From NCBI RefSeq assembly GCF_055900595.2, contig NZ_CM148325.1: a stretch of DNA of 64,000 nt, one strand, 5' to 3'. Each line of letters starts with the position of its first letter. The stretch's first letter is position 1. This document shows positions 24,850 to 49,989 of the stretch, piece after piece. Under the pieces are notes generated by a model. That model searched no databases and was not told where the DNA came from. It saw only the letters and a program-made list of their open reading frames with translations. The position numbers were made by a program, and so were the translations under genes.

Positions 24850-25320
24850 ATGAAAACACAACATGGTTATACGCTGATTGAAACGCTGGTCGCGATGCTG
24901 ATTCTGGTCATGCTAAGCGCAAGTGGACTCTATGGCTGGCAATACTGGCAGCAGTCGCAACGGCTATGGCAAACCGCCAGCCAGGCGCGGGACTATTTGC
25001 TCTATTTACGTGAAGATGCCAACTGGCATAACCGCGACCACAGTATCAGCGTTATCAGGGAGGGGGCGTTATGGTGCCTTGTGAGTTCCGCGGCTGGGGC
25101 CAATACCTGTCATGGCAGTTCACCATTGGTCTTTGTGCCACGCTGGCCCGAAGTCGAAATGAGCGACCTGACACCTTCGCTTGCTTTCTTTGGCCTGCGC
25201 AATACCGCATGGGCCGGGCATATTCGCTTTAAAAACTCAACGGGCGAGTGGTGGCTGGTGGTTTCGCCGTGGGGAAGACTCCGGCTTTGTCAGCAAGGAG
25301 AAACAGAAGCATGCCTGTAA
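24850..25320 (+). CDS. ppdA: Prepilin peptidase-dependent protein A (type IV pilin-like)
   Basis: 156 aa; N-terminal [14 protein letters not shown] prepilin-type leader and hydrophobic segment. Confidence 0.88.
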
Positions 25321-25874
25321 AAGAGCTAGGTTTTTCTCTGCTGGAAGTGTTGATTGCTATGGCGATCAGTAGCGTATTGTTGCTGGGGGCAGCACGCTTT
25401 CTGCCTGCGTTACAGCGTGAAAGTTTAACGAGCACCCGTAAGCTGGCGCTGGAAGATGAAATCTGGCTGCGGGTATTTACCGTCGCGAAGCATCTCCAGA
25501 GGGCGGGTTATTGTCATGGCAGCTGTACCGGCGAAGGGCTGGAAATTGTCGGACAGGGGGACTGTATCATTGTGCAGTGGGATGCGAACAGTAACGGTAT
25601 CTGGGATCGCGAACCGGTAAAAGAGTCCGACCAGATTGCATTTCGTCTGAAGGAGCATGTGCTGGAAACGCTACGCGGTGCGACATCCTGTGAAGGTAAG
25701 GGCTGGGATAAAGTCACTAATCCGGATGCCATCATTATCGACACTTTTCAGGTTACCCGACAGGATGTCAGCGGTTTCTCGCCGGTGTTGACGGTTAATA
25801 TGCATGCTGCCAGCAAGGCTGATCCACAAACTGTGGTGGATGCCAGCTATAGCGTGACAGGATTCAACCTGTGA
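25311..25874 (+). CDS. ppdB: Prepilin peptidase-dependent protein B
   Basis: 187 aa from ATG at 25311 ([18 protein letters not shown]...), aggag RBS; overlaps the ppdA stop; the track ORF is a 21-codon upstream extension. Confidence 0.85.
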
Positions 25875-26278
25875 ACCGCGAAAAGGGTGTTTCGTCACTG
25901 GCTCTGGTCCTTATGCTGCTGGTTTTGGGTAGCTTGCTATTGCAAGGAATGAGTCAGCAGGATCGCAGTTTTGCCTCTCGCGTGAGCATGGAAAGTCAGT
26001 CATTGCGCCGCCAGGCCATCGTTCAGTCGACGCTGGAGTGGGGAAAAATGCACGCCTGGCAGACGCAGCCCGCAGTTCAGTGCTTACTGTACGCTGCCAC
26101 CGGTGCCCGGGTTTGTCTGCGTTTATTGGCAGATAATGAAGCCTTATTGATTGCCGGTTATGAAGGCGTTTCGTTGTGGCGAACAGGCGAAGTCATCGAT
26201 GGAAACATTGTTTTTTCGCCACGCGGCTGGAGCGATTTTTGTCCGCTGAAAGAGAGGGCGTTATGTCAGCTTCCCTGA
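25871..26278 (+). CDS. ygdB: Pilus-assembly-like protein YgdB
   Basis: 135 aa; GTG start overlapping the ppdB stop; N-terminal hydrophobic segment. Confidence 0.8.
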
Positions 26279-26586
26279 AGAATCAACAAGGCTTTAGCCT
26301 GCCGGAGGTGATGTTGGCGATGGTGCTGATGGTGATGATTGTCACTGCGTTATCGGGTTTCCAGCGAACATTAATGAACAGTCTTGCCAGCAGAAACCAG
26401 TACCAACAGCTCTGGCGGCATGGCTGGCAGCAAACGCAACTGCGTGCGATTTCGCCACCTGCCAACTGGCAGGTCAACCGAATGCAGACATCGCAGGCGG
26501 GATGTGTCAGCATCAGCGTTACGCTAGTTTCACCCGGGGGCAGAGAAGGCGAGATGACCCGCCTGCATTGCCCGAATCGTCAGTAG
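26263..26586 (+). CDS. ppdC: Prepilin peptidase-dependent protein C
   Basis: 107 aa from ATG at 26263 ([21 protein letters not shown]...), prepilin-type N-terminus; overlaps the ygdB stop. Confidence 0.85.
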
Positions 26587-26598
26587 TCAGGAGCCGCT

Positions 26599-29500
26599 AT
26601 GTTAAGGGTCTACCATTCCAATCGTCTGGACGTGCTGGAAGCGTTGATGGAGTTTATTGTCGAACGCGAACGGCTGGACGATCCTTTCGAACCAGAGATG
26701 ATTCTGGTGCAAAGTACCGGTATGGCGCAGTGGCTGCAAATGACCCTGTCGCAAAAGTTTGGTATTGCGGCAAACATTGATTTTCCGCTGCCAGCGAGCT
26801 TTATCTGGGATATGTTCGTCCGGGTGTTACCGGAGATCCCCAAAGAGAGCGCCTTTAACAAACAGAGCATGAGCTGGAAACTGATGACTCTGCTGCCGCA
26901 ACTGTTGGAGCGCGAAGACTTTACCCTGTTGCGGCATTATCTGACTGACGATAGCGACAAGCGAAAACTGTTCCAGCTTTCCTCTAAAGCGGCGGACCTG
27001 TTTGACCAGTATCTGGTCTATCGCCCGGACTGGCTGGCACAGTGGGAAGCCGGGAATCTGGTAGAAGGACTTGGAGAGGCGCAGGCCTGGCAAGCGCCGT
27101 TGTGGAAGGCGCTGGTGGAATATACCCATCAACTCGGGCAACCGCGCTGGCACCGCGCCAATCTCTATCAGCGCTTTATCGAAACGCTGGAGTCCGCGAC
27201 GACCTGCCCGCCGGGGTTACCTTCGCGCGTCTTTATATGCGGTATTTCCGCGTTACCGCCTGTTTATCTCCAGGCGCTACAGGCGCTGGGTAAACATATT
27301 GAAATCCATCTCCTGTTTACCAACCCCTGCCGTTATTACTGGGGCGACGTTAAAGATCCTGCTTATCTGGCGAAACTGCTGACTCGCCAGCGCCGACACA
27401 GTTTTGAAGATCGCGAATTACCGCTATTTCGCGACAGCGAAAATGCCGGGCAGCTCTTTAACAGCGATGGTGAACAGGATGTCGGCAACCCGCTGCTGGC
27501 CTCATGGGGCAAGCTTGGGCGCGACTACATTTATCTCCTTTCTGATCTGGAGAGCAGCCAGGAGCTGGACGCTTTTGTCGATGTGACGCCAGATAACCTG
27601 CTGCATAACATTCAGTCTGACATTCTGGAACTGGAGAACCGCGCCGTTGCGGGTGTGAACATCGAAGAGTTTTCCCGTAGCGATAACAAACGCCCTCTTG
27701 ATCCACTGGATAGCAGTATCACCTTCCACGTTTGCCATAGCCCGCAGCGTGAAGTTGAAGTTTTACACGATCGCTTGCTGGCGATGCTGGAGGAAGACCC
27801 GACACTTACTCCGCGCGACATCATCGTGATGGTGGCCGACATCGACAGCTACAGTCCGTTTATTCAGGCTGTGTTTGGTAGCGCACCTGCGGATCGTTAC
27901 CTGCCTTACGCCATTTCCGACCGTCGAGCGCGGCAGTCGCATCCGGTACTTGAAGCGTTTATCAGCCTGTTATCGTTGCCAGACAGCCGATTTGTGTCGG
28001 AAGACGTGCTGGCATTACTGGATGTGCCGGTGCTGGCGGCGCGGTTTGACATCACCGAAGAAGGGCTGCGTTATTTACGTCAGTGGGTCAACGAGTCCGG
28101 AATTCGTTGGGGGATAGATGACGATAACGTTCGCGAGCTGGAACTCCCCGCCACAGGTCAACACACCTGGCGGTTTGGCCTGACGCGCATGTTGCTGGGC
28201 TACGCGATGGAAAGCGCGCAGGGCGAGTGGCAATCGGTTCTGCCTTATGATGAATCGAGCGGCTTAATTGCAGAACTGGTGGGGCATCTGGCTTCACTGC
28301 TAATGCAGCTAAACATCTGGCGTCGCGGGCTGGCGCAGGAGCGTCCGCTGGAAGAGTGGTTGCCGGTTTGTCGCGATATGCTCAACGCCTTCTTCCTGCC
28401 GGATGCGGAAACCGAAGCGGCGATGACGCTGATCGAACAACAATGGCAGGCGATTATCGCCGAAGGTTTAGGTGCGCAGTATGGCGACGCGGTGCCGTTG
28501 TCACTATTGCGTGATGAACTGGCACAACGTCTGGATCAGGAACGTATCAGCCAGCGTTTTCTCGCCGGGCCGGTTAACATTTGTACTCTGATGCCAATGC
28601 GTTCCATCCCATTCAGAGTGGTTTGCCTGCTGGGAATGAACGACGGCGTTTACCCACGCCAGCTTGCGCCATTGGGCTTTGACCTGATGAGTCAGAAACC
28701 GAAGCGTGGCGACCGTAGCCGTCGCGATGATGACCGCTATCTGTTCCTGGAAGCGTTAATTTCCGCGCAGCAAAAACTCTATATCAGCTATATCGGGCGT
28801 TCCATTCAGGATAACAGTGAACGTTTCCCGTCGGTGCTGGTGCAGGAACTGATCGACTACATCGGGCAAAGCCATTATCTACCGGGCGATGAAGCGCTCA
28901 ATTGTGATGAAAGCGAGGCGAGGGTAAAAGCGCATCTTACTTGCCTCCATACCCGGATGCCGTTTGATCCACAAAACTATCAGCCAGGTGAACGACAAAG
29001 CTATGCACGTGAGTGGTTACCTGCGGCAAGCCAGGCTGGTAAGGCACATTCTGAATTTGTTCAGCCGCTGCCGTTTACCTTGCCGGAAACCGTGCCGCTG
29101 GAGACGCTACAACGATTCTGGGCGCATCCGGTGCGGGCGTTTTTCCAGATGCGCTTGCAGGTGAACTTCCGTACCGAAGATAGCGAAATTCCCGACACCG
29201 AACCTTTTATTCTTGAAGGGCTTAGTCGTTATCAAATCAACCAGCAGTTATTGAATGCTCTGGTCGAGCAAGATGATGCCGATCGCTTATTCCGCCGCTT
29301 CCGGGCGGCAGGGGATTTACCGTATGGCGCTTTTGGTGAAATTTTCTGGGAAACACAGTGTCAGGAGATGCAGCAGCTTGCCGACAGAGTCATTGCCTGT
29401 CGCCAACCGGGGCAAAGTATGGAAATTGATCTCGCCTGCAACGGTGTGCAAATAACGGGTTGGTTGCCGCAGGTGCAGCCGGATGGCCTGTTACGCTGGC

Positions 29501-29967
29501 GTCCCTCTTTATTAAGTGTGGCGCAGGGAATGCAACTTTGGCTGGAACACCTTGTCTACTGTGCCAGCGGTGGTAATGGTGAAAGTCGCCTTTTTCTACG
29601 CAAAGACGGCGAGTGGCGTTTTCCGCCGCTTGCAGCCGAACAGGCTTTACATTACCTCTCAGAACTGATTGAGGGGTATCGTGAAGGGATGTCCACGCCG
29701 CTGCTGGTGTTACCTGAAAGTGGCGGCGCGTGGCTAAAAACCTGTTATGACGCGCAAAACGATGCCATGCTGGATGACGATTCCACGTTGCAGAAAGCCC
29801 GTACGAAATTCCTTCAGGCTTACGAAGGCAACATGATGGTGCGTGGAGAAGGTGATGATATCTGGTATCAACGGCTCTGGCGGCAATTAACACCAGAGAC
29901 AATGGAAGCCATCGTTGAACAGTCGCAACGTTTCCTGTTACCGCTGTTTCGCTTTAATCAGTCATGA
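26599..29967 (+). CDS. recC: Exodeoxyribonuclease V gamma subunit
   Basis: 1122 aa; RecC sequence; first gene of the recC-ptrA-recB-recD cluster. Confidence 0.96.
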   Translation: MLRVYHSNRLDVLEALMEFIVERERLDDPFEPEMILVQSTGMAQWLQMTLSQKFGIAANIDFPLPASFIWDMFVRVLPEIPKESAFNKQSMSWKLMTLLPQLLEREDFTLLRHYLTDDSDKRKLFQLSSKAADLFDQYLVYRPDWLAQWEAGNLVEGLGEAQAWQAPLWKALVEYTHQLGQPRWHRANLYQRFIETLESATTCPPGLPSRVFICGISALPPVYLQALQALGKHIEIHLLFTNPCRYYWGDVKDPAYLAKLLTRQRRHSFEDRELPLFRDSENAGQLFNSDGEQDVGNPLLASWGKLGRDYIYLLSDLESSQELDAFVDVTPDNLLHNIQSDILELENRAVAGVNIEEFSRSDNKRPLDPLDSSITFHVCHSPQREVEVLHDRLLAMLEEDPTLTPRDIIVMVADIDSYSPFIQAVFGSAPADRYLPYAISDRRARQSHPVLEAFISLLSLPDSRFVSEDVLALLDVPVLAARFDITEEGLRYLRQWVNESGIRWGIDDDNVRELELPATGQHTWRFGLTRMLLGYAMESAQGEWQSVLPYDESSGLIAELVGHLASLLMQLNIWRRGLAQERPLEEWLPVCRDMLNAFFLPDAETEAAMTLIEQQWQAIIAEGLGAQYGDAVPLSLLRDELAQRLDQERISQRFLAGPVNICTLMPMRSIPFRVVCLLGMNDGVYPRQLAPLGFDLMSQKPKRGDRSRRDDDRYLFLEALISAQQKLYISYIGRSIQDNSERFPSVLVQELIDYIGQSHYLPGDEALNCDESEARVKAHLTCLHTRMPFDPQNYQPGERQSYAREWLPAASQAGKAHSEFVQPLPFTLPETVPLETLQRFWAHPVRAFFQMRLQVNFRTEDSEIPDTEPFILEGLSRYQINQQLLNALVEQDDADRLFRRFRAAGDLPYGAFGEIFWETQCQEMQQLADRVIACRQPGQSMEIDLACNGVQITGWLPQVQPDGLLRWRPSLLSVAQGMQLWLEHLVYCASGGNGESRLFLRKDGEWRFPPLAAEQALHYLSELIEGYREGMSTPLLVLPESGGAWLKTCYDAQNDAMLDDDSTLQKARTKFLQAYEGNMMVRGEGDDIWYQRLWRQLTPETMEAIVEQSQRFLLPLFRFNQS

Positions 29968-30142
29968 GTGCTGTATAAAAATTGCGCAATTCATCTGCTT
30001 ACTTTATGATGCGCACCAGTCACGGACTGATGGTTATATAGACATAGGCTGACTCGTGCAGCACAAGATTAAATTCTGCCGGATAATTTTCGTTAACGTA
30101 TTGAATCTGGACAGAAAATAAAGTTGATAATGAGGTCCGTGA

Positions 30143-33031
30143 ATGCCCCGCAGCACCTGGTTCAAAGCATTATTGTTGTTTGTTGCCCTTTGGGCACCCT
30201 TAAGTCAGGCAGAAACGGGATGGCAGCCGATTCAGGAAACCATCCGTAAAAGTGGTAAAGATAACCGCCAGTATCAGGCTATACGTCTGGATAACGGTAT
30301 GGTGGTTTTGCTGGTTTCTGACCCGCAGGCGGTTAAATCGCTCTCGGCGCTGGTGGTGCCCGTTGGGTCGCTGGAAGATCCCGAGGCGTACCAGGGGCTG
30401 GCACATTACCTTGAACATATGAGTCTGATGGGTTCGAAAAAGTACCCGCAGGCTGACAGTCTGGCTGAATACCTCAAAATGCACGGCGGCAGCCACAATG
30501 CCAGCACGGCACCGTATCGCACGGCTTTCTATCTGGAAGTTGAGAACGACGCCTTACCCGGTGCGGTAGACCGCCTGGCCGATGCTATTGCTGAACCCTT
30601 GCTCGACAAGAAATACGCCGAACGTGAGCGTAATGCGGTGAACGCTGAATTAACCATGGCGCGTACGCGTGATGGGATGCGCATGGCACAGGTCAGCGCA
30701 GAAACCATTAACCCGGCACACCCAGGTTCAAAGTTTTCTGGTGGTAACCTCGAAACTTTAAGCGATAAACCCGGCAATCCGGTACAGCAGGCGCTGAAAG
30801 ATTTCCACGAGAAATATTACTCTGCCAATCTGATGAAGGCGGTTATATACAGCAATAAACCGTTGTCGGAGTTGGCAAAAATGGCGGCGGACACTTTTGG
30901 TCGCGTGCCGAACAAAGAGAGCAAAAAACCGGAAATCACCGTGCCGGTAGTCACCGACGCGCAAAAGGGCATTATCATTCATTACGTCCCGGCGCTGCCG
31001 CGTAAAGTTCTGCGCGTTGAGTTTCGCATCGATAACAATTCAGCGAAGTTCCGTAGTAAAACGGATGAATTGATTACCTATCTGATTGGTAATCGCAGCC
31101 CAGGTACACTTTCTGACTGGCTGCAAAAGCAGGGATTAGTTGAGGGCATTAGCGCCAATTCCGATCCTATCGTCAACGGCAACAGCGGCGTATTAGCGAT
31201 CTCTGCGTCTTTAACCGATAAAGGTCTGGCGAATCGCGATCAGGTTGTGGCGGCCATTTTTAGCTACCTCAATCTGTTACGCGAAAAAGGGATTGATAAA
31301 CAATACTTCGATGAACTGGCGAATGTGCTGGATATCGACTTTCGTTATCCGTCAATCACCCGTGATATGGATTACGTTGAATGGCTGGCAGATACCATGA
31401 TTCGCGTTCCTGTTGAGCATACGCTGGATGCAGTCAATATTGCCGATCGGTACGATGCTAAAGCAGTAAAAGAACGCCTGGCGATGATGACGCCGCAGAA
31501 TGCGCGTATCTGGTATATCAGCCCGAAAGAGCCGCACAACAAAACGGCTTACTTTGTCGATGCGCCGTATCAGGTAGATAAAATTAGCGCACAAACTTTC
31601 GCCGACTGGCAGAAAAAAGCCGCCGACATTGTGCTCTCTTTGCCAGAGCTTAACCCTTATATTCCTGACGATTTCTCGCTGATTAAGTCAGAGAAGAAAT
31701 ACGACCATCCAGAGCTGATTGTTGATGAGTCGAATCTGCGCGTGGTGTATGCGCCAAGCCGTTATTTTGCCAGCGAACCCAAAGCTGATGTTAGCCTGAT
31801 TTTGCGTAACCCGAAAGCCATGGACAGCGCCCGCAATCAGGTGATGTTTGCGCTCAATGATTATCTTGCCGGACTGGCGCTTGATCAGTTAAGCAACCAG
31901 GCGTCGGTTGGTGGCATAAGTTTTTCCACCAATGCTAACAACGGCCTTATGGTTAATGCCAATGGTTACACCCAGCGCCTGCCGCAGCTGTTCCAGGCTC
32001 TGCTGGAGGGCTACTTTAGCTATACCGCTACGGAAGATCAGCTTGAGCAGGCGAAGTCCTGGTATAACCAGATGATGGATTCCGCAGAAAAGGGCAAAGC
32101 GTTCGAGCAGGCGATTATGCCCGCGCAGATGCTCTCGCAAGTGCCGTACTTCTCGCGAGATGAACGGCGCAAAATTTTGCCTTCAATCACTTTGAAAGAG
32201 GTGCTGGCCTATCGCGACGCCTTAAAATCAGGGGCTCGACCAGAGTTTATGGTTATTGGCAACATGACCGAAGACCAGGCAACAACGCTGGCACGCGATG
32301 TGCAAAAACAGTTGGGCGCTGATGGTTCGGAGTGGTGTCGTAACAAAGATGTCGTGGTCGATAAAAAACAATCCGTCATCTTTGAAAAAGCCGGTAACAG
32401 CACCGACTCCGCACTGGCAGCGGTATTTGTACCGACTGGCTACGATGAATACACCAGCTCAGCCTATAGCTCTCTGCTGGGGCAGATCGTACAGCCGTGG
32501 TTCTACAATCAGTTGCGTACCGAAGAACAGTTGGGCTATGCCGTGTTTGCGTTTCCAATGAGCGTGGGACGTCAGTGGGGCATGGGCTTCCTGTTGCAAA
32601 GCAATGATAAACAGCCTTCATTCTTGTGGGAGCGTTACAAGGCGTTTTTCCCAACCGCAGAGGCAAAATTGCGGACGATGAAGCCAGAAGAGTTTGCGCA
32701 AATCCAGCAGGCGGTAATAACCCAGATGCTGCAGGCACCGCAAACGCTCGGCGAAGAAGCATCGAAGTTAAGTAAAGATTTCGATCGCGGCAATATGCGC
32801 TTCGATTCGCGTGATAAAATCGTGGCCCAGATAAAACTGCTGACGCCGCAAAAACTTGCTGATTTCTTCCATCAGGCGGTGGTCGAGCCGCAAGGCATGG
32901 CTATTCTGTCGCAGATTTCCGGCAGCCAGAACGGGAAAGCCGAATATGTGCATCCTGAAGGTTGGAAAGTGTGGGAGAACGTCAGCGCGTTACAGCAAAC
33001 AATGCCCCTGATGAGTGAAAAGAATGAGTGA
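30143..33031 (+). CDS. ptrA: Protease III (pitrilysin, M16 family)
   Basis: 962 aa; signal peptide; inverted zinc-binding HYLEH motif. Confidence 0.96.
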   Translation: MPRSTWFKALLLFVALWAPLSQAETGWQPIQETIRKSGKDNRQYQAIRLDNGMVVLLVSDPQAVKSLSALVVPVGSLEDPEAYQGLAHYLEHMSLMGSKKYPQADSLAEYLKMHGGSHNASTAPYRTAFYLEVENDALPGAVDRLADAIAEPLLDKKYAERERNAVNAELTMARTRDGMRMAQVSAETINPAHPGSKFSGGNLETLSDKPGNPVQQALKDFHEKYYSANLMKAVIYSNKPLSELAKMAADTFGRVPNKESKKPEITVPVVTDAQKGIIIHYVPALPRKVLRVEFRIDNNSAKFRSKTDELITYLIGNRSPGTLSDWLQKQGLVEGISANSDPIVNGNSGVLAISASLTDKGLANRDQVVAAIFSYLNLLREKGIDKQYFDELANVLDIDFRYPSITRDMDYVEWLADTMIRVPVEHTLDAVNIADRYDAKAVKERLAMMTPQNARIWYISPKEPHNKTAYFVDAPYQVDKISAQTFADWQKKAADIVLSLPELNPYIPDDFSLIKSEKKYDHPELIVDESNLRVVYAPSRYFASEPKADVSLILRNPKAMDSARNQVMFALNDYLAGLALDQLSNQASVGGISFSTNANNGLMVNANGYTQRLPQLFQALLEGYFSYTATEDQLEQAKSWYNQMMDSAEKGKAFEQAIMPAQMLSQVPYFSRDERRKILPSITLKEVLAYRDALKSGARPEFMVIGNMTEDQATTLARDVQKQLGADGSEWCRNKDVVVDKKQSVIFEKAGNSTDSALAAVFVPTGYDEYTSSAYSSLLGQIVQPWFYNQLRTEEQLGYAVFAFPMSVGRQWGMGFLLQSNDKQPSFLWERYKAFFPTAEAKLRTMKPEEFAQIQQAVITQMLQAPQTLGEEASKLSKDFDRGNMRFDSRDKIVAQIKLLTPQKLADFFHQAVVEPQGMAILSQISGSQNGKAEYVHPEGWKVWENVSALQQTMPLMSEKNE

Positions 33032-36000
33032 TGTCGCCGAGACACTAGATCCTTTGCGCTTGCCCTTACAGGGCGAGCGCCTGATTGAAGCCTCTGCCGG
33101 CACAGGCAAAACCTTTACGATTGCGGCGCTCTATTTGCGCCTGTTACTTGGACTAGGCGGTTCTGCCGCCTTTCCCCGCCCGCTGACCGTTGAAGAACTG
33201 CTGGTGGTGACCTTTACCGAGGCTGCCACGGCAGAATTGCGCGGTCGTATCCGTAGCAATATCCACGAGTTGCGCATCGCCTGTCTGCGTGAAACCACCG
33301 ACAATCCACTGTACGAACGCCTGCTGGAAGAGATCGACGATAAAGCGCAAGCCGCGCAGTGGTTGTTGTTAGCCGAACGGCAGATGGATGAAGCGGCAGT
33401 CTTTACTATTCACGGTTTTTGCCAGCGCATGCTCAACTTGAATGCCTTTGAATCCGGCATGCTGTTTGAGCAGCAGCTGATTGAAGATGAGTCTCTGCTA
33501 CGCTACCAGGCCTGCGCCGATTTCTGGCGTCGCCACTGCTACCCGCTGCCGCGTGAAATTGCCCAGGTGGTCTTTGAAACCTGGAAAGGGCCGCAGGCGT
33601 TGCTGCGCGATATTAATCGTTATCTGCAAGGCGAAGCACCGGTTATCAAAGCACCGCCGCCCGATGATGAAACGCTGGCTTCCCGCCACGCGCAAATTGT
33701 GGCGCGTATTGATACGGTAAAACAGCAGTGGCGCGACGCAGTGGGTGAACTGGATGCGCTGATCGAATCTTCTGGTATTGATCGACGCAAGTTTAACCGT
33801 AGCAATCAGGCTAAATGGATCGAGAAGATCAGTGCCTGGGCAGAAGAAGAGACCAACAGTTATCAGTTACCGGAGTCGCTGGAAAAATTCTCTCAGCGTT
33901 TCTTAGAAGATCGCACGAAAGCCGGGGGGGAAACCCCGCGACATCCACTGTTTGAGGCGATCGATCAACTGCTTGCAGAACCATTGTCGATCCGTGATCT
34001 GGTGATCACCCGCGCATTGGCTGAGATCCGCGAAACAGTAGCGCGTGAAAAACGCCGCCGTGGCGAATTGGGTTTTGATGACATGTTAAGTCGGCTCGAT
34101 TCCGCGCTGCGTAGCGAAAGCGGCGAGGTGTTGGCAGCGGCGATCCGTACGCGATTCCCGGTGGCAATGATTGATGAATTTCAGGATACCGACCCCCAGC
34201 AGTACCGAATTTTTCGCCGTATCTGGCACCATCAGCCGGAAACCGCATTGTTGCTGATTGGCGACCCGAAACAGGCCATATATGCATTCCGGGGTGCGGA
34301 TATCTTCACTTATATGAAGGCGCGTAGCGAAGTTCACGCCCACTACACCTTAGATACCAACTGGCGCTCCGCACCAGGAATGGTGAACAGCGTGAATAAG
34401 CTTTTCAGTCAGACTGATGACGCGTTCATGTTTCGCGAAATACCGTTTATTCCAGTGAAATCAGCCGGGAAAAATCAGGCGTTACGTTTTGTGTTTAAAG
34501 GTGAAACGCAGCCTGCGATGAAAATGTGGCTGATGGAAGGCGAAAGCTGCGGCGTTGGCGATTATCAAAGTACCATGGCGCAGGTATGTGCTGCGCAAAT
34601 CCGCGACTGGCTACAAGCCGGACAGCGGGGCGAAGCGTTGCTGATGAACGGCGACGACGCGCGTCCGGTGCGTGCTTCGGACATCAGTGTGCTGGTGCGC
34701 AGCCGCCAGGAGGCCGCTCAGGTGCGCGATGCCTTAACGCTGCTGGAAATCCCTTCCGTTTACCTTTCGAACCGCGACAGTGTTTTTGAAACTCTGGAAG
34801 CGCAGGAGATGCTTTGGCTGTTGCAGGCGGTGATGACACCAGAACGTGAGAACACCCTGCGCAGTGCGCTGGCAACGTCAATGATGGGGCTGAATGCGCT
34901 GGATATTGAAACGCTGAATAATGACGAACATGCGTGGGATGCGGTAGTCGAAGAGTTCGATGGTTATCGGCAAATCTGGCGCAAACGTGGCGTTATGCCG
35001 ATGCTGCGGGCGCTGATGTCGGCGCGTAACATTGCAGAAAACTTGCTGGCAACAGCAGGCGGTGAGCGGCGTCTTACCGATATCTTGCATATCAGCGAAT
35101 TGCTACAAGAAGCCGGAACGCAGCTGGAAAGTGAACATGCGCTGGTACGCTGGTTATCGCAACATATCCTCGAGCCAGACAGTAATGCCTCCAGCCAACA
35201 AATGCGTCTCGAAAGTGATAAACATCTGGTGCAGATTGTCACGATCCACAAATCGAAAGGGCTGGAATATCCATTGGTCTGGCTGCCGTTTATCACCAAT
35301 TTCCGCGTCCAGGATCAGGCGTTTTATCACGATCGCCACTCGTTTGAGGCTGTTCTGGATCTTAATGCTGCGCCAGAAAGCGTCGACCTCGCGGAGGCCG
35401 AACGTCTGGCGGAAGATCTGCGTTTGCTTTACGTTGCGCTGACGCGTTCGGTTTGGCATTGCAGTCTCGGCGTTGCACCGCTGGTGCGCCGTCGTGGCGA
35501 TAAAAAAGGTGACACCGACGTCCACCAAAGTGCGCTCGGGCGTTTGCTGCAAAAAGGGGAACCGCAAGATGCGGCAGGGCTTCGCACCTGTATTGAAGCG
35601 TTATGCGATGATGATATTGCCTGGCAAACGGCACAAACTGGTGATAACCAGCCCTGGCAGGTTAATGATGCTTTAACTGCAGAACTGAATGCGAGGACGC
35701 TACAACGATTGCCCGGCGATAACTGGCGTGTCACCAGCTACTCCGGTTTGCAGCAGCGTGGTCACGGTATCGCTCAGGATCTGATGCCACGGCTGGATGT
35801 TGATGCCGCAGGCGTGGTCAGCGTCGTTGAAGAACCGACGTTAACACCGCATCAGTTCCCGCGCGGTGCGTCACCAGGGACATTCTTGCACAGTTTGTTT
35901 GAAGACCTCGATTTTACCCAGCCGGTTGACCCGAACTGGGTACAGGAAAAACTGGAACTCGGCGGCTTTGAATCGCAGTGGGAACCAGTGTTGACCGAGT

Positions 36001-36566
36001 GGATCACGGCTGTCCTCCAGGCACCTCTCAATGAAACGGGTGTTAGCCTGAATCAGCTTTCCGACCGCGATAAACAGGTGGAGATGGAGTTTTACCTGCC
36101 GATTAGTGAACCGCTCATCGCCAGCCAGCTTGATGCACTAATTCGCCAGTTTGATCCGCTATCCGCTGGCTGCCCGCCGCTGGAGTTCATGCAGGTACGC
36201 GGCATGTTAAAAGGCTTTATCGACCTGGTATTCCGCCACGAAGGGCGTTATTACCTGCTCGACTATAAATCCAACTGGCTGGGTGAAGACAGTTCGGCTT
36301 ATACCCAACAGGCTATGGCAGCGGCGATGCAGGCACACCGCTATGATCTGCAATATCAGCTTTATACCCTGGCGCTGCATCGTTATCTGCGCCATCGCAT
36401 TGCTGATTACGACTATGATCGTCACTTTGGCGGCGTTATCTATCTGTTCCTGCGTGGCGTTGATAAAGAACATCCGCAACAAGGGATTTACACAACCCGA
36501 CCCAACGCCGGGTTGATTGACCTGATGGATGAGATGTTTGCCGGTATGACCCTGGAGGAGGCGTAA
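33024..36566 (+). CDS. recB: Exodeoxyribonuclease V beta subunit (helicase-nuclease)
   Basis: 1180 aa from ATG at 33024 ([11 protein letters not shown]...); Walker A GTGKT; overlaps the ptrA stop by 8 nt. Confidence 0.96.
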
Positions 36567-38392
36567 TGAAATTGCAAAAGCAATTACTGGAAGCTGTGGA
36601 GCACAAACAGCTACGCCCGCTGGATGTGCAATTTGCCCTGACCGTGGCGGGAGATGAACATCCTGCCGTCACCCTCGCGGCAGCCCTGTTAAGCCACGAC
36701 GCCGGGGAAGGGCATGTCTGTTTACCGCTCTCACGACTGGAAAATAACGAGGAGTCACATCCGCTGTTAGCAACCTGCGTCAGCGAAATCGGTGAGTTAC
36801 AAAATTGGGAAGAATGCTTGCTGGCTTCACAAGCGGTCAGCCGGGGAGATGAACCAACGCCGATGATCCTCTGTGGTGATCGTCTTTATTTGAATCGCAT
36901 GTGGTGTAACGAGCGCACAGTGGCACGCTTTTTCAACGAAGTGAATCATGCCATTGAGGTTGATGAAGCTCTACTGGCGCAAACCCTGGACAAACTTTTT
37001 CCAGTAAGCGATGAAATTAACTGGCAAAAAGTGGCGGCGGCAGTGGCGCTGACGCGGCGGATCTCGGTGATTTCCGGCGGCCCTGGCACCGGTAAAACGA
37101 CCACCGTAGCGAAGTTGCTGGCAGCGTTAATTCAAATGGCAGACGGCGAACGCTGCCGTATCCGTCTGGCTGCACCAACGGGTAAAGCTGCCGCGCGCTT
37201 AACCGAATCTCTCGGCAAGGCTTTGCGCCAGTTACCGCTGACCGATGAACAAAAGAAACGCATTCCGGAAGATGCCAGCACTTTGCACCGATTGCTGGGT
37301 GCGCAGCCGGGTAGCCAGCGTTTACGTCATCATGCCGGTAACCCGCTGCATCTTGATGTGCTGGTGGTAGATGAAGCGTCAATGATCGATCTGCCTATGA
37401 TGTCGAGACTGATCGACGCCTTGCCCGATCATGCGCGAGTGATCTTTCTCGGCGATCGTGATCAACTGGCCTCGGTTGAGGCTGGGGCTGTGCTGGGCGA
37501 TATCTGCGCTTATGCCAATGCGGGCTTTACCGCAGAGCGTGCCGGGCAGCTAAGCCGCCTGACGGGAAGCCACGTCCCGGCGGGAAGCGGTACGGAAGCG
37601 GCATCTTTGCGCGACAGTCTCTGCCTGCTGCAAAAAAGCTATCGTTTCGGCAGCGATTCTGGCATTGGTCAGTTAGCTGCGGCGATCAACCGTGGTGATA
37701 AAACGGCAGTGAAAACCGTTTTTCAGCAGGATTTTACTGATATCGAAAAACGGCTTTTACAGAGCGGCGAAGACTATATTGCGATGCTTGAGGAGGCTCT
37801 TGCGGGTTACGGGCGTTATCTGGATCTGCTTCAGGCACGTGCCGAGCCGGATTTAATCATTCAGGCGTTCAATGAGTACCAGCTTTTGTGCGCCCTGCGG
37901 GAAGGGCCGTTTGGCGTGGCTGGACTGAATGAGCGAATTGAGCAGTTTATGCAACAGAAGCGCAAAATTCATCGTCATCCGCACTCTCGTTGGTACGAAG
38001 GCCGACCAGTGATGATTGCCCGTAATGACAGCGCGCTTGGGTTGTTTAATGGCGATATCGGTATTGCGCTGGATCGCGGGCAGGGGACGCGCGTCTGGTT
38101 TGCGATGCCGGATGGCAATATTAAGTCTGTGCAACCGAGCCGCCTGCCAGAACACGAAACCACGTGGGCGATGACGGTACATAAATCGCAGGGATCGGAG
38201 TTTGACCATGCGGCGTTGATTTTACCGAGCCAACGCACGCCAGTTGTAACGCGAGAGCTGGTTTACACTGCGGTGACCCGCGCGCGTCGCCGTCTGTCGT
38301 TGTATGCCGATGAGCGCATATTAAGTGCGGCAATCGCCACTCGTACTGAGCGGCGCAGTGGTCTGGCGGCGTTGTTTAGTTCGCGGGAATAA
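36566..38392 (+). CDS. recD: Exodeoxyribonuclease V alpha subunit
   Basis: 608 aa; Walker [10 protein letters not shown]; start ATG overlaps the recB stop (TAATG). Confidence 0.96.
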
Positions 38393-38401
38393 ACGTGATT
38401 G

Positions 38402-38510
38402 CCTGATGCGATGCATGCGCGTCCTGTCATGCCTCCGGGCATTGCGCATATGCGCATCTGGCGATTTCCGTCGCTTACCCTAAATCCGCCATCAACACCT
38501 TTGATTTGAT
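38402..38510. repeat. Degenerate direct copy of the argA 3' end and flank
   Basis: About 109 bp (cctgatgcgatgcatgcgcg...ccatcaacac) about 85% identical to 38559-38667, which contains the real argA stop. Confidence 0.7.
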
Positions 38511-41613: not shown

Positions 41614-41647
41614 ATCATCTTGTAACTGTTAAATCAGGCAAGGCAAT
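41614..41647 (+). promoter_or_regulatory. RAT (ribonucleic antiterminator) element in the operon leader
   Basis: tcatcTTGTaACTGtTAAAtCAGGCAAggCa resembles the SacY/LicT/BglG RAT consensus GGATTGTTACTGATAAAGCAGGCAAAACC; its 3' part overlaps the left arm of the following terminator. Confidence 0.6.
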
Positions 41648-41691
41648 GTTTGAAGTAATTATTACTTCTGACGTGCCTTGCCTTTTTTTTT
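41638..41691 (+). terminator. Leader rho-independent terminator overlapping the RAT
   Basis: Outer stem ggcaaggca/tgccttgcc (41638-41646 and 41674-41682) with an inner stem gaagtaat/attacttc, followed by T9 (41683-41691). Confidence 0.7.
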
Positions 41692-41702
41692 GGAGCTATG
41701 GA

Positions 41703-42527
41703 ATGATCATCGAAAAAGTCATGAACAATAATTGTGTACAGGCATCGATGAATGGACAGGAGGTTATCATTTCTGGGCCTGGCGTCGGTTACAACAAAAA
41801 ATATGGAATGTCGGTCCCTGAGCATCCGGCTAACCGGATTTTTTATGTCAGAAATGAACAAAAAAATAAACTCTACAAATTGATTGAACATGTGGATATT
41901 GAGTATGTTTTTGTTGCCGAAAAAATAGTGCAATATGCGGAGAACAATCTCGAAAAAAATCTCAATCCATCGCTACTATTGATTCTTGCTGATCATATTT
42001 CGAATGCAATATCCCGAGTCGCTTCAGGCATACAAATTAATAATGTTTTCCTTGATGAAATCAAAGCGTTGTACAAAGCAGAGTATGCGATAAGTCGCGA
42101 TGCATTAACTATCATTAATGAGCAATTCAGCGTTCAACTTCCTGATGATGAGATTGGTTTTATAGCATTGCATATTTTAAATAATTATGAAAATTCAGTT
42201 GATTATGAATCAGTACGGATTATTGAGTTGTCGCAAATAATCACGGGGCTTATTGAAGTTGTTTATAACAGAAAGGTGGACAGAAGTTCATTTAATTATT
42301 CCAGGTTCATGATACACCTTAAATATTTTTCAAGTCGCGTATTATGCAATGAAAAAATAAAACAGAAAGATATTGGTGATCTCTATGAACAGTTTCTTGA
42401 GAAAGACATTCTGTTACAGCGCGCAATTCATGAAATTGAAAGGTATTTGTACGCCACTTTTAAATATGAATTGATTTTGGAAGAAAAACTATATCTCTCT
42501 ATTCGCACCAAAGTATTAATGGACTGA
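41703..42527 (+). CDS. BglG/LicT/SacY-family transcriptional antiterminator (CAT domain plus two PRDs)
   Basis: 274 aa from ATG at 41703 (MIIEKVMNNNCVQASMNGQEVIISGPGVGYNKK = CAT RNA-binding domain); conserved His in PRD-like segments (IGFIALHILNN, RFMIHLKYFSS); ggag RBS 7 nt upstream. The track start at 41646 lies inside the terminator hairpin. Confidence 0.8.
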   Translation: MIIEKVMNNNCVQASMNGQEVIISGPGVGYNKKYGMSVPEHPANRIFYVRNEQKNKLYKLIEHVDIEYVFVAEKIVQYAENNLEKNLNPSLLLILADHISNAISRVASGIQINNVFLDEIKALYKAEYAISRDALTIINEQFSVQLPDDEIGFIALHILNNYENSVDYESVRIIELSQIITGLIEVVYNRKVDRSSFNYSRFMIHLKYFSSRVLCNEKIKQKDIGDLYEQFLEKDILLQRAIHEIERYLYATFKYELILEEKLYLSIRTKVLMD

Positions 42528-42558
42528 TTATATATAACATTTATATGAGATAACCCGC

Positions 42559-44139
42559 ATGAAACAAAAGAAAGCCTGGAGTTTTTTTCAGAGCCTGGGA
42601 AAGGCATTTATGTATCCCATCGCTCTGCTAAGTGTATGTGGCATGATGTTAGGGCTAGGAAGTGGTTTAGCCAGCGATGATATGGCAAAATTAATTCCAC
42701 TACTGGCTATTCCCGTAATTAAAACCATTCTTGATTTTATTGTTAGCCTTGGTTTGTTTGCCTTTGTCAATTTACCTGTATTGTTTGCGATAGCTATACC
42801 TCTGGGGTTATTAAAAGAGAAAGAGGATAAAGCCTATGGCGCTTTTTCTGGCTTAATTGGTTTCATGGCGATGCATCTGGGAACGAACTTTTATCTTAAA
42901 CAACATGACTTATTGGTCGCTGCTGATCAAATGTCGACACATGGGCAAACCATTATTCTGGGAATCCAGTCCTACAATACCAGTGTGTTGGGTGGGATTA
43001 TAGCAGGATTATTAGTCGCCAGTATGTATAAAAAGATCGTTAACTTACGTATTCCTGAATCATTAGGATTTTATAGTGGCCCACGCCTGGTGCCTATTAT
43101 TACACTGATTGTGATGAGCGGATTTGGTCTGATCATCCCTTTTATCTGGCCGCCATTTTTCAATCTTTTCATGCTCATTGGCCACTGGATTTCAACTTCC
43201 GGTCCTGTTGGCTATTTTTTCTATGCAGTCGCCGAACGCGTGACGATACCTTTTGGTTTAAATCACCTGGTGACGTCAGTTTTCCGCTTTACCCCCATCG
43301 GCGGATCGGCAGTGATCGGCGGAGAAGAGTATTATGGCACCCTGAACATGTTTATGGCGTACGTCAAAGAGAATGCGGTCATTCCGCTGGATTTGGCGGG
43401 GAAAATGGAACAGGGCAAACTGATGATTCAGTATGGTCTGGCTGGTGCCGCGCTGGCGATGTATCGCACTGCTCATGCTCAAAACAGAAAAGCTATCAAA
43501 GCATTGCTTATTTCCGGGGTGCTTACAGTCATTATTGGCGGCGTCAGCGAACCGATTGAGTTTCTGTTCTTATTTGTCAGTCCACTGCTATTTGTCTTCC
43601 ATGCTTTTATGAATGGATTCGCCAACATGGTCTTGCCATATATGGGCGTGAAGATGGGATTTACTGGCGATCTGATTCAATTTATTAGCTTTGGCGTATT
43701 GCGTGGCACAAGAACAGGTTGGCCAATAGCGGTGTGTGTCGAAGTGGCCTATTTCTTTATTTATTACTTTGTGTTCCGTTGGACTATTCTCAAATTTAAC
43801 CTGATGACGGTAGGCCGTGAAGAGTCCAGTCCTGTCACGCTGAACGCTCATGAGGATACGGCTATAGCGGATATCCCACCGCTTGATAAATCAGAGCTGC
43901 AAGCAGCGGAGCAGATGGTTAAGGCACTTGGTGGTAAAGAGAATATTAAATCCCTGGATAATTGCGTAACTCGTTTACGTTTAACAATCGCAGATATGGG
44001 ATTGATTGACGAGGCAGCAATAAAAAGAGCTGGCGGAATTGCGGTTGTTAAACTTGATCAAAATACCCTACAAGTCATTATCGGTACTAAAGTCATCGCC
44101 TTGCGTCGGGATATGGATAACTACATGGGGATATGCTGA
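42559..44139 (+). CDS. PTS glucose-family EIICB permease (no EIIA domain)
   Basis: 526 aa; about 10 TM segments (EIIC) then a C-terminal EIIB domain with phosphorylatable Cys in NCVTRLRLTIADMGL...AVVKLDQNTLQVIIGTK. Confidence 0.85.
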   Translation: MKQKKAWSFFQSLGKAFMYPIALLSVCGMMLGLGSGLASDDMAKLIPLLAIPVIKTILDFIVSLGLFAFVNLPVLFAIAIPLGLLKEKEDKAYGAFSGLIGFMAMHLGTNFYLKQHDLLVAADQMSTHGQTIILGIQSYNTSVLGGIIAGLLVASMYKKIVNLRIPESLGFYSGPRLVPIITLIVMSGFGLIIPFIWPPFFNLFMLIGHWISTSGPVGYFFYAVAERVTIPFGLNHLVTSVFRFTPIGGSAVIGGEEYYGTLNMFMAYVKENAVIPLDLAGKMEQGKLMIQYGLAGAALAMYRTAHAQNRKAIKALLISGVLTVIIGGVSEPIEFLFLFVSPLLFVFHAFMNGFANMVLPYMGVKMGFTGDLIQFISFGVLRGTRTGWPIAVCVEVAYFFIYYFVFRWTILKFNLMTVGREESSPVTLNAHEDTAIADIPPLDKSELQAAEQMVKALGGKENIKSLDNCVTRLRLTIADMGLIDEAAIKRAGGIAVVKLDQNTLQVIIGTKVIALRRDMDNYMGIC

Positions 44140-45314
44140 TGGATGTTTTTAATACTCCTATTTCCCGCAAAGGAACATATTGTACCCAATGGGACTTTTG
44201 CGAGGACAGATTTGGTGTAAAAGATGTATTACCATTCTCTATTTCAGATATGGATCTTCCGATACCGGAAGCTATCATCAGGGCATTAAAAAAACGTCTG
44301 GAACACCCGATTTTAGGGTACAGCCGTTGGCAGCATGATGACTATCTGAATGCGATAGTCAATTGGTATCATCAACAATATAAAACTGAAATCAAACCAG
44401 AATGGATCACCTATAGCCCAAGCGTGATGTACTCCATTGCTAAAGCAATAGAGTTATTGACATCGCATGGTGATAATATTCTCGTTTTTACACCTGTCTA
44501 TAATGCATTTTTTGATATAATTAAACATAGTGAGAGAAATATTCTGACAGCCTCTTTGATTATAAAAAATGAGGGGGGCTACGCTATCAATTGGCAAGAT
44601 TTTGATCTTAAGATTCAAAGCGCAAAGATGGTGTTATTATGTAATCCTCATAACCCGACAGGAACCGTCTGGTCGGAAGAAGATCTGCATAAAATCGCTG
44701 CAAGCTGTGCAAGACATAATGTCTGGTTATGTTCAGATGAAATTCACAGTGATTTTGTTTTTAATCGTAGCTTTACATCTGCGCTTAAAATAAAAAAAGA
44801 AAAAGTAGTGGTGTTTAATTCGATATCGAAGACATTTAATGTTCCCGCGCTAACAGGATCGTATATGATTTCAACTGACGATAATTTTAATCATAAGTTC
44901 AGAACGATATCAAGATATCGCGATTTTGTAAACTCCCCATCCGTACTGAATATAATTGCAACTATTATTGCCTATAACGAATGTGAGGGATGGTTAAAGT
45001 CATTAAAGGCACATATTGCCTCTAACATTCAATTCACCCAGCAGTATCTGAACGAAAATACTCCAGAATTGATCGTAAGGCCAGCTGATGGTTGCTATTT
45101 TTCGTGGATAGATTGCTCTGCTATTGGTTATCCATTTGATGAATTCTACAGTCGATTAATTCATGAAGGCAAAGTGGGCATTATGGCGGGGAATGTCTAT
45201 GGAACGGAGGGGGAGGGCTACCTTCGTCTGAACCTGGCCTGCGGTCGAGAAAAATTATATATGGGGCTTACGCGTCTTGCGAGTGTAATTAAAAATATTA
45301 ATCAAGGAAAATAA
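44133..45314 (+). CDS. PLP-dependent aminotransferase class I/II, MalY/PatB-like C-S lyase
   Basis: 393 aa; NPHNPTG motif and Schiff-base Lys in NSISKTFN; start overlaps the PTS gene stop (ATGCTGATGGA). Confidence 0.8.
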   Translation: MLMDVFNTPISRKGTYCTQWDFCEDRFGVKDVLPFSISDMDLPIPEAIIRALKKRLEHPILGYSRWQHDDYLNAIVNWYHQQYKTEIKPEWITYSPSVMYSIAKAIELLTSHGDNILVFTPVYNAFFDIIKHSERNILTASLIIKNEGGYAINWQDFDLKIQSAKMVLLCNPHNPTGTVWSEEDLHKIAASCARHNVWLCSDEIHSDFVFNRSFTSALKIKKEKVVVFNSISKTFNVPALTGSYMISTDDNFNHKFRTISRYRDFVNSPSVLNIIATIIAYNECEGWLKSLKAHIASNIQFTQQYLNENTPELIVRPADGCYFSWIDCSAIGYPFDEFYSRLIHEGKVGIMAGNVYGTEGEGYLRLNLACGREKLYMGLTRLASVIKNINQGK

Positions 45315-45316
45315 AA

Positions 45317-45913
45317 ATGAACAGCACGGATCTTATCCATCTCATTAAACATTTTATGCGTAACGAACATAAAGCAGTTGAAGAAGTTATTGATTCCCCC
45401 CTTTCGGAGGTTGCAAATTTAATTAAAGTATTACAGTCTTGTCAGGGGAAAGTTGTTTTTATTGGTGTCGGTAAGTCCGGTATTATTGCCCGAAAACTCG
45501 CCGCAACATTTGCCAGCACTGGAACTCCCTCGTTTTTTGTTCACGGTACTGAAGCCGTACACGGCGATCTTGGGATGGTGGCGAAAGATGATGTTGTTAT
45601 TCTTATTTCAAACAGTGGTGAGACGACAGAAATCCTGGCAACACTACCTAGTCTGAAAAAAATGGGTAATTATTTGATCTCCTTTACCCGCAGTCATCGC
45701 TCATCGCTTGCGATAAGTTGTGATTTATCCGTTGAAATTCCCGTAAAAAGTGAGGCGGATAATTTAGGTTTAGCGCCGTCATGCTCATCAACAGTCGTTC
45801 TGGTTGTTGGTGATGCGGTGGCGCTTGCGCTCTCCGAATTGAAAAAGTTTACTCGTGCTGATTTCGGCTTATATCATCCAGGAGGTGCGCTCGGTATTAA
45901 AGCAAACTCATAA
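45317..45913 (+). CDS. SIS-domain sugar-phosphate isomerase (KdsD/GutQ-like catalytic domain without CBS domains)
   Basis: 198 aa; VVFIGVGKSGIIARKLAATFASTGTPSFFVHGTEAVHGDLGMV...ISNSGET...HPGGALG closely resembles the SIS core of arabinose-5-phosphate isomerases; no C-terminal CBS pair. Confidence 0.8.
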   Translation: MNSTDLIHLIKHFMRNEHKAVEEVIDSPLSEVANLIKVLQSCQGKVVFIGVGKSGIIARKLAATFASTGTPSFFVHGTEAVHGDLGMVAKDDVVILISNSGETTEILATLPSLKKMGNYLISFTRSHRSSLAISCDLSVEIPVKSEADNLGLAPSCSSTVVLVVGDAVALALSELKKFTRADFGLYHPGGALGIKANS

Positions 45914-45983
45914 TTTTAGAATATAAAACAGTAACCGGTCACGCCATCTTTTGGGGTGGCGTTCATTGATGTGAGTGTCAGCT

Positions 45984-47009: not shown

Positions 47010-47086
<77 letters not shown>

Positions 47087-47119
47087 TCACCGTACTGCTT
47101 TACTTCATCAAATTTTGAT

Positions 47120-47196
<77 letters not shown>

Positions 47197-47229
47197 TCAC
47201 CGTACTGCTTTACTTCATCAAATTTTAAT

Positions 47230-47306
<77 letters not shown>

Positions 47307-49545: not shown

Positions 49546-49989
49546 TTAACCCTGCTTCGCCGCCGCGATAATCGCCTCACTTAACGCATTCAACCCCTGG
49601 CTGCGTGAGGCGCTAAGCTGCGCACGCAATCCCAGCTCATCAAACAATGCCAGCGGCGACTGAGCCTGCAATTCGGCGGCGGTTTTCCCCTCAACGGCAG
49701 TCAACAACACTGCCAGCAGGCCGCGCACAATGCGTCCTTCGCTGTCGCCAAAGAAATGCATCGTGCCGTTTTCAGCCACGGTATACCCCAGCCAGACGCG
49801 GTTTTCGCATCCGGCAATCTCTTTAGCCTGCGCTTTTAACTCGTCTGGCAAAGCAGGAAGCTGTTTCCCCAACATAATCAGCTGGCGATATTTGTCTTCC
49901 CATTGCGTCAGTGGCGCGAAAGTATCGCGTAACGTCTCTATGGTAACGGTTGTGCCGAACGGATGTCCGGCGAATTGCGGGTTTGTCAT
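49546..49989 (-). CDS. csdE: Cysteine desulfurase sulfur-acceptor protein (SufE-like)
   Basis: 147 aa; SufE family; start overlaps the csdA stop. Confidence 0.9.

Follow-up and report, generated by a model that had tools for sequence, protein, structure and literature searches.

The window, that is, the whole 64-kb stretch of DNA that was analysed, is a piece of the Escherichia coli chromosome, and the locus studied here is the well-known ptrA-recB-recD operon. Among 5426 complete E. coli genomes, 5425 match positions 32000–38500 with at least 95% identity, several of them reaching 100%, and coordinates were compared with RefSeq/PGAP annotation, using a strain that has the identical sequence over this range. 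The gene order in the annotation is the expected one, recC-ptrA-recB-recD with argA convergent. According to both the ORF list and RefSeq, the plus strand carries ptrA (30143–33031), which encodes pitrilysin (protease III) and ends in AAT GAG TGA, recB (33024–36566), which encodes the β subunit of exodeoxyribonuclease V (1180 aa), and recD (36566–38392), which encodes the α subunit of this enzyme (608 aa). The thyA-argA region of E. coli K-12 (recC, ptr/ptrA-recB-recD) agrees in its genes, gene order and junction sequences. Of 5425 E. coli genomes, 5216 share a 60-mer spanning the ptrA/recB junction with at least 99% identity, and in the K-12 derivative DH5α this 60-mer is 100% identical. The junctions do not differ from those of K-12, whereas the window as such derives from a strain other than K-12 and has accessory insertions elsewhere.

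The original prediction held that the ptrA stop overlaps the recB start by 8 nt, that the recB stop overlaps the recD start in the motif TAATG and that like overlaps exist at three further gene pairs. All of these overlaps are present, and for the two junctions of the operon the reading from the sequence agrees with the RefSeq coordinates. The ptrA/recB overlap, ATGAGTGA (33024–33031, plus strand, spacing −8), contains the recB ATG at 33024–33026 and the ptrA stop codon TGA at 33029–33031, and it also holds a third-frame TGA at 33025–33027. At the recB/recD overlap (36564–36568, plus strand, spacing −1) the recB stop codon TAA (36564–36566) and the recD ATG (36566–36568) have a single base, A36566, in common. 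The octamer of the ptrA/recB junction recurs at aas/lplT (ATGAGTGA, 13344–13351, plus strand, −8), the overlap ATGAATAA connects ygdD and rlmM (53288–53295, plus strand, −8), and TAATG is found again at csdA/csdE (49987–49991, minus strand, −1), each according to sequence and annotation. Neither the overlaps at ptrA-recB-recD nor the idea of coupling at these sites is new. Both overlaps were reportedly described by Finch et al. in the original sequencing of the region (Nucleic Acids Res. 1986). The 1-nt overlap between recB and recD was stated in 2008 (PMC2586629).

The range originally assigned to the junctions began at 33015, which is the position of an alternative in-frame GTG (33015–33017, plus strand) and not that of the 8-nt overlap, which starts with the ATG at 33024. 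In the recB frame this region reads TGA (33012–33014), GTG (33015), AAA, AGA, ATG (33024), AGT, GAT. The ORF list places the start of a longer ORF at the GTG, since no other in-frame start codon lies between it and the preceding stop. With initiation at this codon the protein would gain three residues (Val/fMet-Lys-Arg-Met-Ser-Asp...) and the overlap with ptrA would measure 17 nt, but we consider this highly improbable. The GTG at −9 was found in only 20 of 80 loci, 51 of the 80 are without any upstream in-frame alternative, and the Shine-Dalgarno pairing of the GTG amounts to +0.6 kcal/mol, which means none. The ATG at 33024 is present in all 80 loci and is the sole start conserved throughout. 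The RefSeq annotation also begins recB at this codon, and the solved RecB chains in the Protein Data Bank (1w36_B, 1180 aa, and others) align from residue 1 with the Met encoded there. The assignment of the recB start to ATG 33024 rather than GTG 33015 is well supported by these data; the start is confirmed for annotation and the GTG in the ORF list should be disregarded. The notion that the junctions speak against longer alternative starts holds for recB but finds no application elsewhere. Of the genes downstream of the five junctions, recB alone is given a longer start in the ORF list, the difference being three codons, and the ORF-list starts of lplT, recD, csdE and rlmM are already the annotated ones.

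In the annotated stretch (approximately 11.2–57 kb of the window), 9 of 29 co-directional gene pairs overlap (31%), 7 of them at −1, −4 or −8. Overlap is therefore commonplace, and the ptrA-recB-recD junctions are typical and not exceptional. Spacings of −4, −1 and −8 are known as the three enriched classes (PMC12548453, PMC10666635), and genes that encode the subunits of heteromeric complexes show a 4.5-fold enrichment of short overlaps (PMC10666635). The octamer itself was rejected as a signal; matches to its class, ATGANTRA, are no more frequent in the window than expected (16 versus 17.4), and only its position at gene boundaries matters. The frequency of overlaps would fit the idea that they are mere by-products of genome compaction and drifting stop positions, with no functional coupling and with recB and recD bound independently. 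We regard this as unlikely, in part because of the comparative data. In a single scan of a genome collection, which covered 80 loci (79 for recB/recD) of Enterobacteriaceae, the ptrA/recB overlap was kept in 78 of the 80 loci (45 at −4, 31 at −8 and 2 at −20) and the recB/recD overlap in all 79 (70 at −4 and 9 at −1). The −1, −4 and −8 classes thus cover 76 ptrA/recB loci and 79 recB/recD loci, whereas neutral drift would be expected to spread the distances broadly. At the same time the junction sequences vary among loci, and the reading frame of ptrA shifts between the −4 and the −8 class. The non-randomness of the junctions shows in their conservation, since the overlaps persist while the sequence changes, and retention in 78/80 and 79/79 loci speaks for maintenance by selection across relatives. 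These counts reinforce existing ideas on the operon and open no new question.

The three genes have been described as carried on one polycistronic mRNA (PMC12342828), and a minor internal recD promoter has been reported (PMC2586629). In a simple consensus scan, which is too crude to exclude this minor promoter, neither junction had a promoter nearby or more terminator-like sites than expected by chance. An Rfam scan of the whole window identified GcvB, OmrA/B and three tRNAs only, with no match at the junctions.

The two downstream genes differ strongly in their Shine-Dalgarno sequences. For recB the pairing energy is −2.5 kcal/mol, compared with medians of −2.4 kcal/mol for random intragenic sites and −6.0 kcal/mol for annotated genes. 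The Shine-Dalgarno sequence of recD, GGAGGAGG (36554–36561, plus strand), is located within the last recB codons (Leu-Glu-Glu-Ala) and pairs with the anti-Shine-Dalgarno at −12.1 kcal/mol, the strongest value among 37 genes. Across the loci the medians were −3.0 kcal/mol for recB and −9.8 kcal/mol for recD (79 loci for recD). The usual but not universal motif of coupled pairs, a Shine-Dalgarno for the downstream gene placed in the 3′-terminal part of the gene before it, is therefore present for recD, whereas recB remains at background. Lacking a Shine-Dalgarno above background, recB plausibly relies on ribosomes that come from ptrA; recD, with the strongest one in the region, can probably also start independently.

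For other coupled pairs it is established that the upstream ribosome acts by unfolding RNA (PMC12548453). Applied to this operon, the ribosome-binding site of recB or recD would be locked in a structure that opens only when a ribosome translates the preceding gene. The 120 nt around the ptrA/recB junction do fold with unusual stability (z = −2.81, with none of 200 shuffles as stable), but this excess is owed to a hairpin that lies 32 nt downstream of the AUG and not to the start region. The minimum-energy fold leaves the recB AUG and about 7 preceding nucleotides unpaired. The start region of recB, which is A-rich, is predicted to be unpaired, with a mean unpaired probability of 0.51 (rank 26 of 37 genes), and the corresponding value for recD is 0.42; within the range of the 37 genes (0.23–0.70) both are average or above. 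The recD junction is no more stable than its shuffles (z = −0.41). By folding and by accessibility, which stays in the normal range of the 37 genes, no structure sequestering the recB or the recD start was detected. Coupling by RNA unfolding was rejected on these results and is very improbable at either junction.

Probably, the −8 overlap of ptrA and recB serves low-efficiency reinitiation, and the −1 overlap of recB and recD combines partial coupling with independent starts. Both pairs are co-directional and lie at spacings (−8 and −1) within the set of −1, −4 and −8 that characterizes termination–reinitiation pairs. A ribosome ending ptrA at the UGA 33029–33031 would sit over the recB AUG 5 nt upstream, and a low-efficiency restart at this AUG would constitute termination–reinitiation. 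As the recB start has no Shine-Dalgarno of its own, RecB output would be low and would track the translation of ptrA. The same hand-over might occur at the UAAUG of recB/recD. Here the strong, conserved Shine-Dalgarno GGAGGAGG in an unstructured context may provide an additional, independent ribosome entry, so that coupling of recD to recB is probably partial and would keep RecD supplied alongside RecB. That translation of the downstream gene depends on that of the upstream gene is plausible at both junctions. The location of the recB ribosome-binding site inside ptrA has led to the suggestion that these two genes are coupled (eLife 2025, PMC12342828), and E. coli pairs with −8, −4 or −1 spacing are usually coupled when tested (PMC6728339, PMC10666635).

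Several observations nevertheless favour independent binding of ribosomes at recB and recD. Four of five native overlapping pairs tested in E. coli were coupled, and the exception, bioBF (PMC6728339), overlaps yet is uncoupled, so that overlap alone is no proof of coupling. The recD Shine-Dalgarno is free of masking structure, and recB, whose start lies in an unpaired, A-rich stretch according to the predicted fold, may initiate independently even without a Shine-Dalgarno. Moreover, RecD of wild-type length is still made after removal of the recB stop codon, which the authors attributed to the minor internal promoter (PMC2586629). This result and the strong, accessible Shine-Dalgarno of recD argue against strict coupling at recB/recD. 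A complete lack of coupling, on the other hand, is difficult to reconcile with the background-level Shine-Dalgarno of recB and with the finding that an Hfq site located before ptrA alters the translation efficiency of RecB (PMC12342828).

This published Hfq-binding region was found in the ptrA 5′ UTR at 30093–30128 (plus strand), where the 36-nt sequence given in PMC12342828 matches with 2 mismatches; 0 matches are expected by chance. In K-12, deletion of the site raised RecB from 7.9 to 16.3 proteins per mRNA (PMC12342828). Since the deletion also halved the recB mRNA (PMC12342828), its effect on translation could be indirect. If RecB output tracks ptrA translation, control of RecB per mRNA by an Hfq site at the 5′ end of ptrA would be explained. 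The copy number of RecBCD is kept very low, with approximately 5 to 100 RecB molecules in each cell according to the method used (PMC9363994), and RecBCD is harmful both when scarce and in excess (PMC12342828). A recB start without Shine-Dalgarno beneath the ptrA stop would be a simple way to hold RecB low and tied to 5′ signals of ptrA such as Hfq, and the strong Shine-Dalgarno of recD would prevent the third subunit from becoming limiting.

The arrangement resembles that of several systems described previously. The E. coli pairs hyfHI, astDB, ydbH/ynbE as well as menDH (Huber et al. 2019 and 2023) are likewise co-directional with a stop/start overlap between −8 and −1. They were tested with reporters and have −4 overlaps, whereas the −8 and −1 overlaps of ptrA-recB-recD are known from sequence, and most of the tested pairs needed a Shine-Dalgarno, which recB lacks. 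At trpE-trpD and trpB-trpA (Oppenheim and Yanofsky 1980) and at galT-galK (Schumperli et al. 1982) the start is also located at or beside the upstream stop, with the ribosome-binding site within the upstream gene. These junctions have been cited as precedents for ptrA-recB (PMC12342828); there coupling was demonstrated genetically, whereas for ptrA-recB-recD we infer it. RecB and RecD are subunits of one heteromeric enzyme and thus belong to the class enriched in short overlaps, whereas the periplasmic protease PtrA does not form a complex with RecB. In Pseudomonas syringae the three reading frames of recC-recB-recD overlap on one primary transcript (PMC2828478). Unlike in E. coli, no ptrA is inserted between recC and recB in this organism. 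By analogy with this published description, the comparison suggests that recBCD loci have overlapping junctions in general.

The hairpin that accounts for the stability of the ptrA/recB junction region is a predicted fold of 11 bp, GCGCUUGCCCU-UAC-AGGGCGAGCGC (33056–33080, plus strand), which is formed by recB codons 11–19 and begins 24 nt past the ptrA stop. Its stability of −21.0 kcal/mol compares with −10.2 ± 3.1 kcal/mol when the same peptide is recoded synonymously. An equal stability is reached by only 0.03% of 33-nt windows. Of all 33-nt structures on the plus strand of the 64-kb window, the hairpin ranks within the 13 most stable, and the other 12 are mostly intergenic and at gene ends. 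In the alignment, whose loci as relatives are not independent samples, 82.6% of cells were paired compared with 76.1% in shuffles, and compensatory third-position changes were observed. Conservation is limited to some lineages, and the hairpin is absent in Enterobacter, Leclercia and Atlantibacter. No published 3′ end was found at the hairpin; the Term-seq supplements of PMC7815308 contain no entries for recB, ptrA, recC or recD and are hence neutral. The hairpin possibly adjusts the ptrA:recB expression ratio. It might shield the ptrA portion of the mRNA against 3′ exonucleases, serve as a weak attenuator or hinder ribosomes newly restarted at the recB AUG. That it is a selected RNA element which sets the large gap between PtrA and RecB/RecD expression from one mRNA is a tentative proposal, to which we give little weight. 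Unlike the overlaps themselves, the hairpin in recB codons 11–19 may be a new observation.

Comparison with complete Escherichia coli genomes identified the stretch as the known ptrA-recB-recD locus, positions 32000-38500 being at least 95% identical in 5425 of 5426 genomes and 100% identical in several. Gene coordinates were taken from the RefSeq annotation of one strain identical to the window and place recC at 26599-29967, ptrA at 30143-33031, recB at 33024-36566 and recD at 36566-38392, all on the plus strand. The original prediction, that translation is coupled through stop/start overlaps at the ptrA-recB-recD junctions, was confirmed as far as the overlaps are concerned. Direct reading of the sequence showed that ptrA ends with AAT GAG TGA (last base 33031), and, counting from the recB ATG, the two genes share the octamer ATGAGTGA (33024-33031). 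The recB TAA (36564-36566) and the recD ATG (36566-36568) have one base in common (TAATG). Equally real are the overlaps claimed for aas/lplT (-8, 13344-13351, with the identical octamer), ygdD/rlmM (-8, 53288-53295, ATGAATAA) and csdA/csdE (-1, 49987-49991, minus strand). The overlaps at the locus are not new; both were reportedly described in sequencing papers of 1986. The 1-nt recB/recD overlap has been reported (PMC2586629), the ptrA-recB arrangement and its possible coupling have been treated (PMC12342828), and the reading frames of the P. syringae recCBD operon likewise overlap (PMC2828478).

Overlaps of this kind are commonplace. Spacings of -4, -1 and -8 are the three enriched ones according to a review (PMC12548453) and a survey covering 2.66 million gene pairs (PMC10666635), and 9 of 29 co-directional neighbour pairs overlap in the annotated stretch of the window (approximately 11.2-57 kb). 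The ATGANTRA motif showed no enrichment (16 occurrences, 17.4 expected). Further overlaps, absent from the original prediction, join the PTS EIIC/MalY-like pair (-1) as well as ppdA/ppdB (-10), ppdB/ygdB (-4) and ygdB/ppdC (-16). The latter chain (24850-26598, plus strand) ends just 12 nt 5' of recC, so that translation, and perhaps transcription, may run on from the ppd genes into recC.

The non-randomness of the ptrA/recB and recB/recD junctions lies in their conservation. Scanning species-representative genomes with RecB yielded 80 Enterobacteriaceae loci (68-98% protein identity). ptrA and recB overlap in 78 of these, by ATGA (-4) in 45, by ATGA[A/G]TGA (-8) in 31 and at -20 in two, and recB and recD in all 79 loci scored, 70 with [A/G]TGA (-4) and nine with T[A/G]ATG (-1). 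The PtrA C-terminal tail and flanking sequence vary among loci and the -4 and -8 classes place ptrA in different frames with respect to recB, but the stop codon still lies over the start codon. One exception has a 2-nt gap (locus L066). The other, Intestinirhabdus alba, carries a GC-rich non-coding spacer of 413 nt (3585-4001 of its locus, L018) without a reading frame open from end to end and has a better Shine-Dalgarno-like sequence before recB (AGAGGA, -5.8 kcal/mol); by its sequence, this is a naturally occurring uncoupled variant. In E. coli itself, 60-mers spanning the two junctions reach 99% identity or more in 5216 of 5425 (ptrA/recB) and 4819 of 5424 genomes (recB/recD), and both are 100% identical to the window in the K-12 derivative DH5alpha.

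The overlaps had also been taken to argue against longer starts in the list of computed reading frames. This held for recB, the only one of the five downstream genes with such an alternative, by a difference of 3 codons; for the other four the argument had no object. The recB frame reads TGA (33012-33014), GTG (33015), AAA, AGA, ATG (33024), and the list begins recB at the GTG because it comes first after the in-frame stop, whereas the annotation uses the ATG. The ATG is present in 80/80 loci and the GTG in only 20 (Escherichia, Citrobacter, Salmonella), where it derives from the ptrA codons AGT GAA; 51/80 loci lack any in-frame upstream alternative, and the GTG shows no Shine-Dalgarno pairing (duplex energy +0.6 kcal/mol). 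We therefore reject GTG 33015 and conclude that recB starts at ATG 33024. RecB sequences of solved structures begin at the same Met; this agreement mirrors the annotation as accepted and does not amount to independent evidence.

Two copies of ATGAGTGA stand 13 nt apart (33011-33031, plus strand), one as ptrA codons Met-Ser-Glu (33011) and one as the recB start (33024); a short duplication may have given rise to the ptrA/recB junction and left this pair as its trace. In addition, the last base of the ptrA stop begins an out-of-frame ATG (33031, together TGATG) and with it a 5-codon mini-ORF, ATG TCG CCG AGA CAC TAG (stop to stop 33029-33048, plus strand), a putative decoy restart site; its conservation is limited to loci with Asp at RecB residue 3 and a G-initial codon after it.

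Duplex energies were calculated between the 20 nt 5' of each start and the 16S rRNA 3' end (ACCUCCUUA). The median was -6.0 kcal/mol for 37 annotated genes and -2.4 kcal/mol for random intragenic positions. The recB ATG reached -2.5 kcal/mol, and recD, preceded by GGAGGAGG (36554-36561), -12.1 kcal/mol, the strongest of all 37. This asymmetry is kept across the loci (medians -3.0 and -9.8). In predicted folding, the recB AUG falls within an A-rich segment left unpaired (mean unpaired probability 0.51, rank 26/37), the recD start has a value of 0.42 (rank 12/37), and the recD junction is not more stably folded than its shuffled versions (z = -0.41). Coupling by RNA unfolding is disfavoured, since by these predictions structure masks neither start.

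Coupling at these junctions, already proposed in the literature, is plausible from the sequence, and the junctions conform to the termination-reinitiation class of coupled overlapping pairs (PMC6728339, PMC10666635). Unlike most assayed E. coli pairs, ptrA and recB have no functional relation, and a Shine-Dalgarno sequence is missing before recB. The most economical reading of the recB start is low-efficiency reinitiation by ribosomes that would end at the ptrA UGA. This fits the findings that a single polycistronic operon encodes PtrA, RecB and RecD, that ptrA harbours the recB ribosome-binding site, and that RecB output per mRNA goes up from 7.9 to 16.3 proteins once an Hfq-binding site is deleted from the ptrA 5' UTR (PMC12342828); this 36-nt site is present at 30093-30128. 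For recD, independent initiation likely adds to any ribosome hand-over, and recB/recD coupling is probably only partial. When the recB stop was removed in a recB-recD fusion, RecD of wild-type length was still produced, which the authors ascribed to a minor internal promoter (PMC2586629). In assays of other junctions, one native E. coli overlapping pair out of five proved uncoupled (PMC6728339).

Around the ptrA/recB junction, RNA structure beyond that of shuffled sequence (120 nt, z = -2.81) is confined to an 11-bp hairpin in recB codons 11-19 (33056-33080, plus strand), beginning 24 nt past the ptrA stop. Equal stability is reached by just 0.03% of the 33-nt windows across the 64 kb, and comparable sites are mostly intergenic, at gene ends. 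Its energy is -21.0 kcal/mol, compared with -10.2 ± 3.1 for synonymous recodings of the same peptide, about 0.2% of which (1/400) are as stable. Among the loci, which are related and not independent, 41 of 77 rank in the top 5% when set against their own recodings, and 82.6% of alignment cells pair compared with 76.1% in shuffles (0/500 reach the observed value); sliding the partners along the alignment gave 28-56%. The hairpin is missing from the Enterobacter, Leclercia and Atlantibacter lineages, which do no better than random recoding. Compensatory CG/UA, GC/AU and CG/GC changes occur across Enterobacteriaceae; all affect third codon positions, and lineage base composition could account for them in part. 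The Term-seq supplements searched list no 3' end for the ptrA, recB or recD genes.

Elsewhere in the window, an insert of approximately 1.85 kb between lplT and tas (14538-16388), covered by only 51/5426 complete E. coli genomes, carries a 556-aa minus-strand ORF annotated in other genomes as a DUF4139 domain protein. A five-gene accessory block (41646-46931, plus strand) between amiC and a tRNA-Met cluster encodes a PRD-domain regulator, PTS EIIC, a MalY/PatB-like protein, a KpsF/GutQ-like isomerase and a phosphoglycerate dehydrogenase; it is found in 1688/5426 genomes, mostly at 90-95% identity. Rfam matches comprise OmrA and OmrB upstream of aas (10820-11104, plus strand), three tRNAs annotated as tRNA-Met (47013-47306, minus strand) and GcvB, divergent from gcvA (51630-51835, minus strand).
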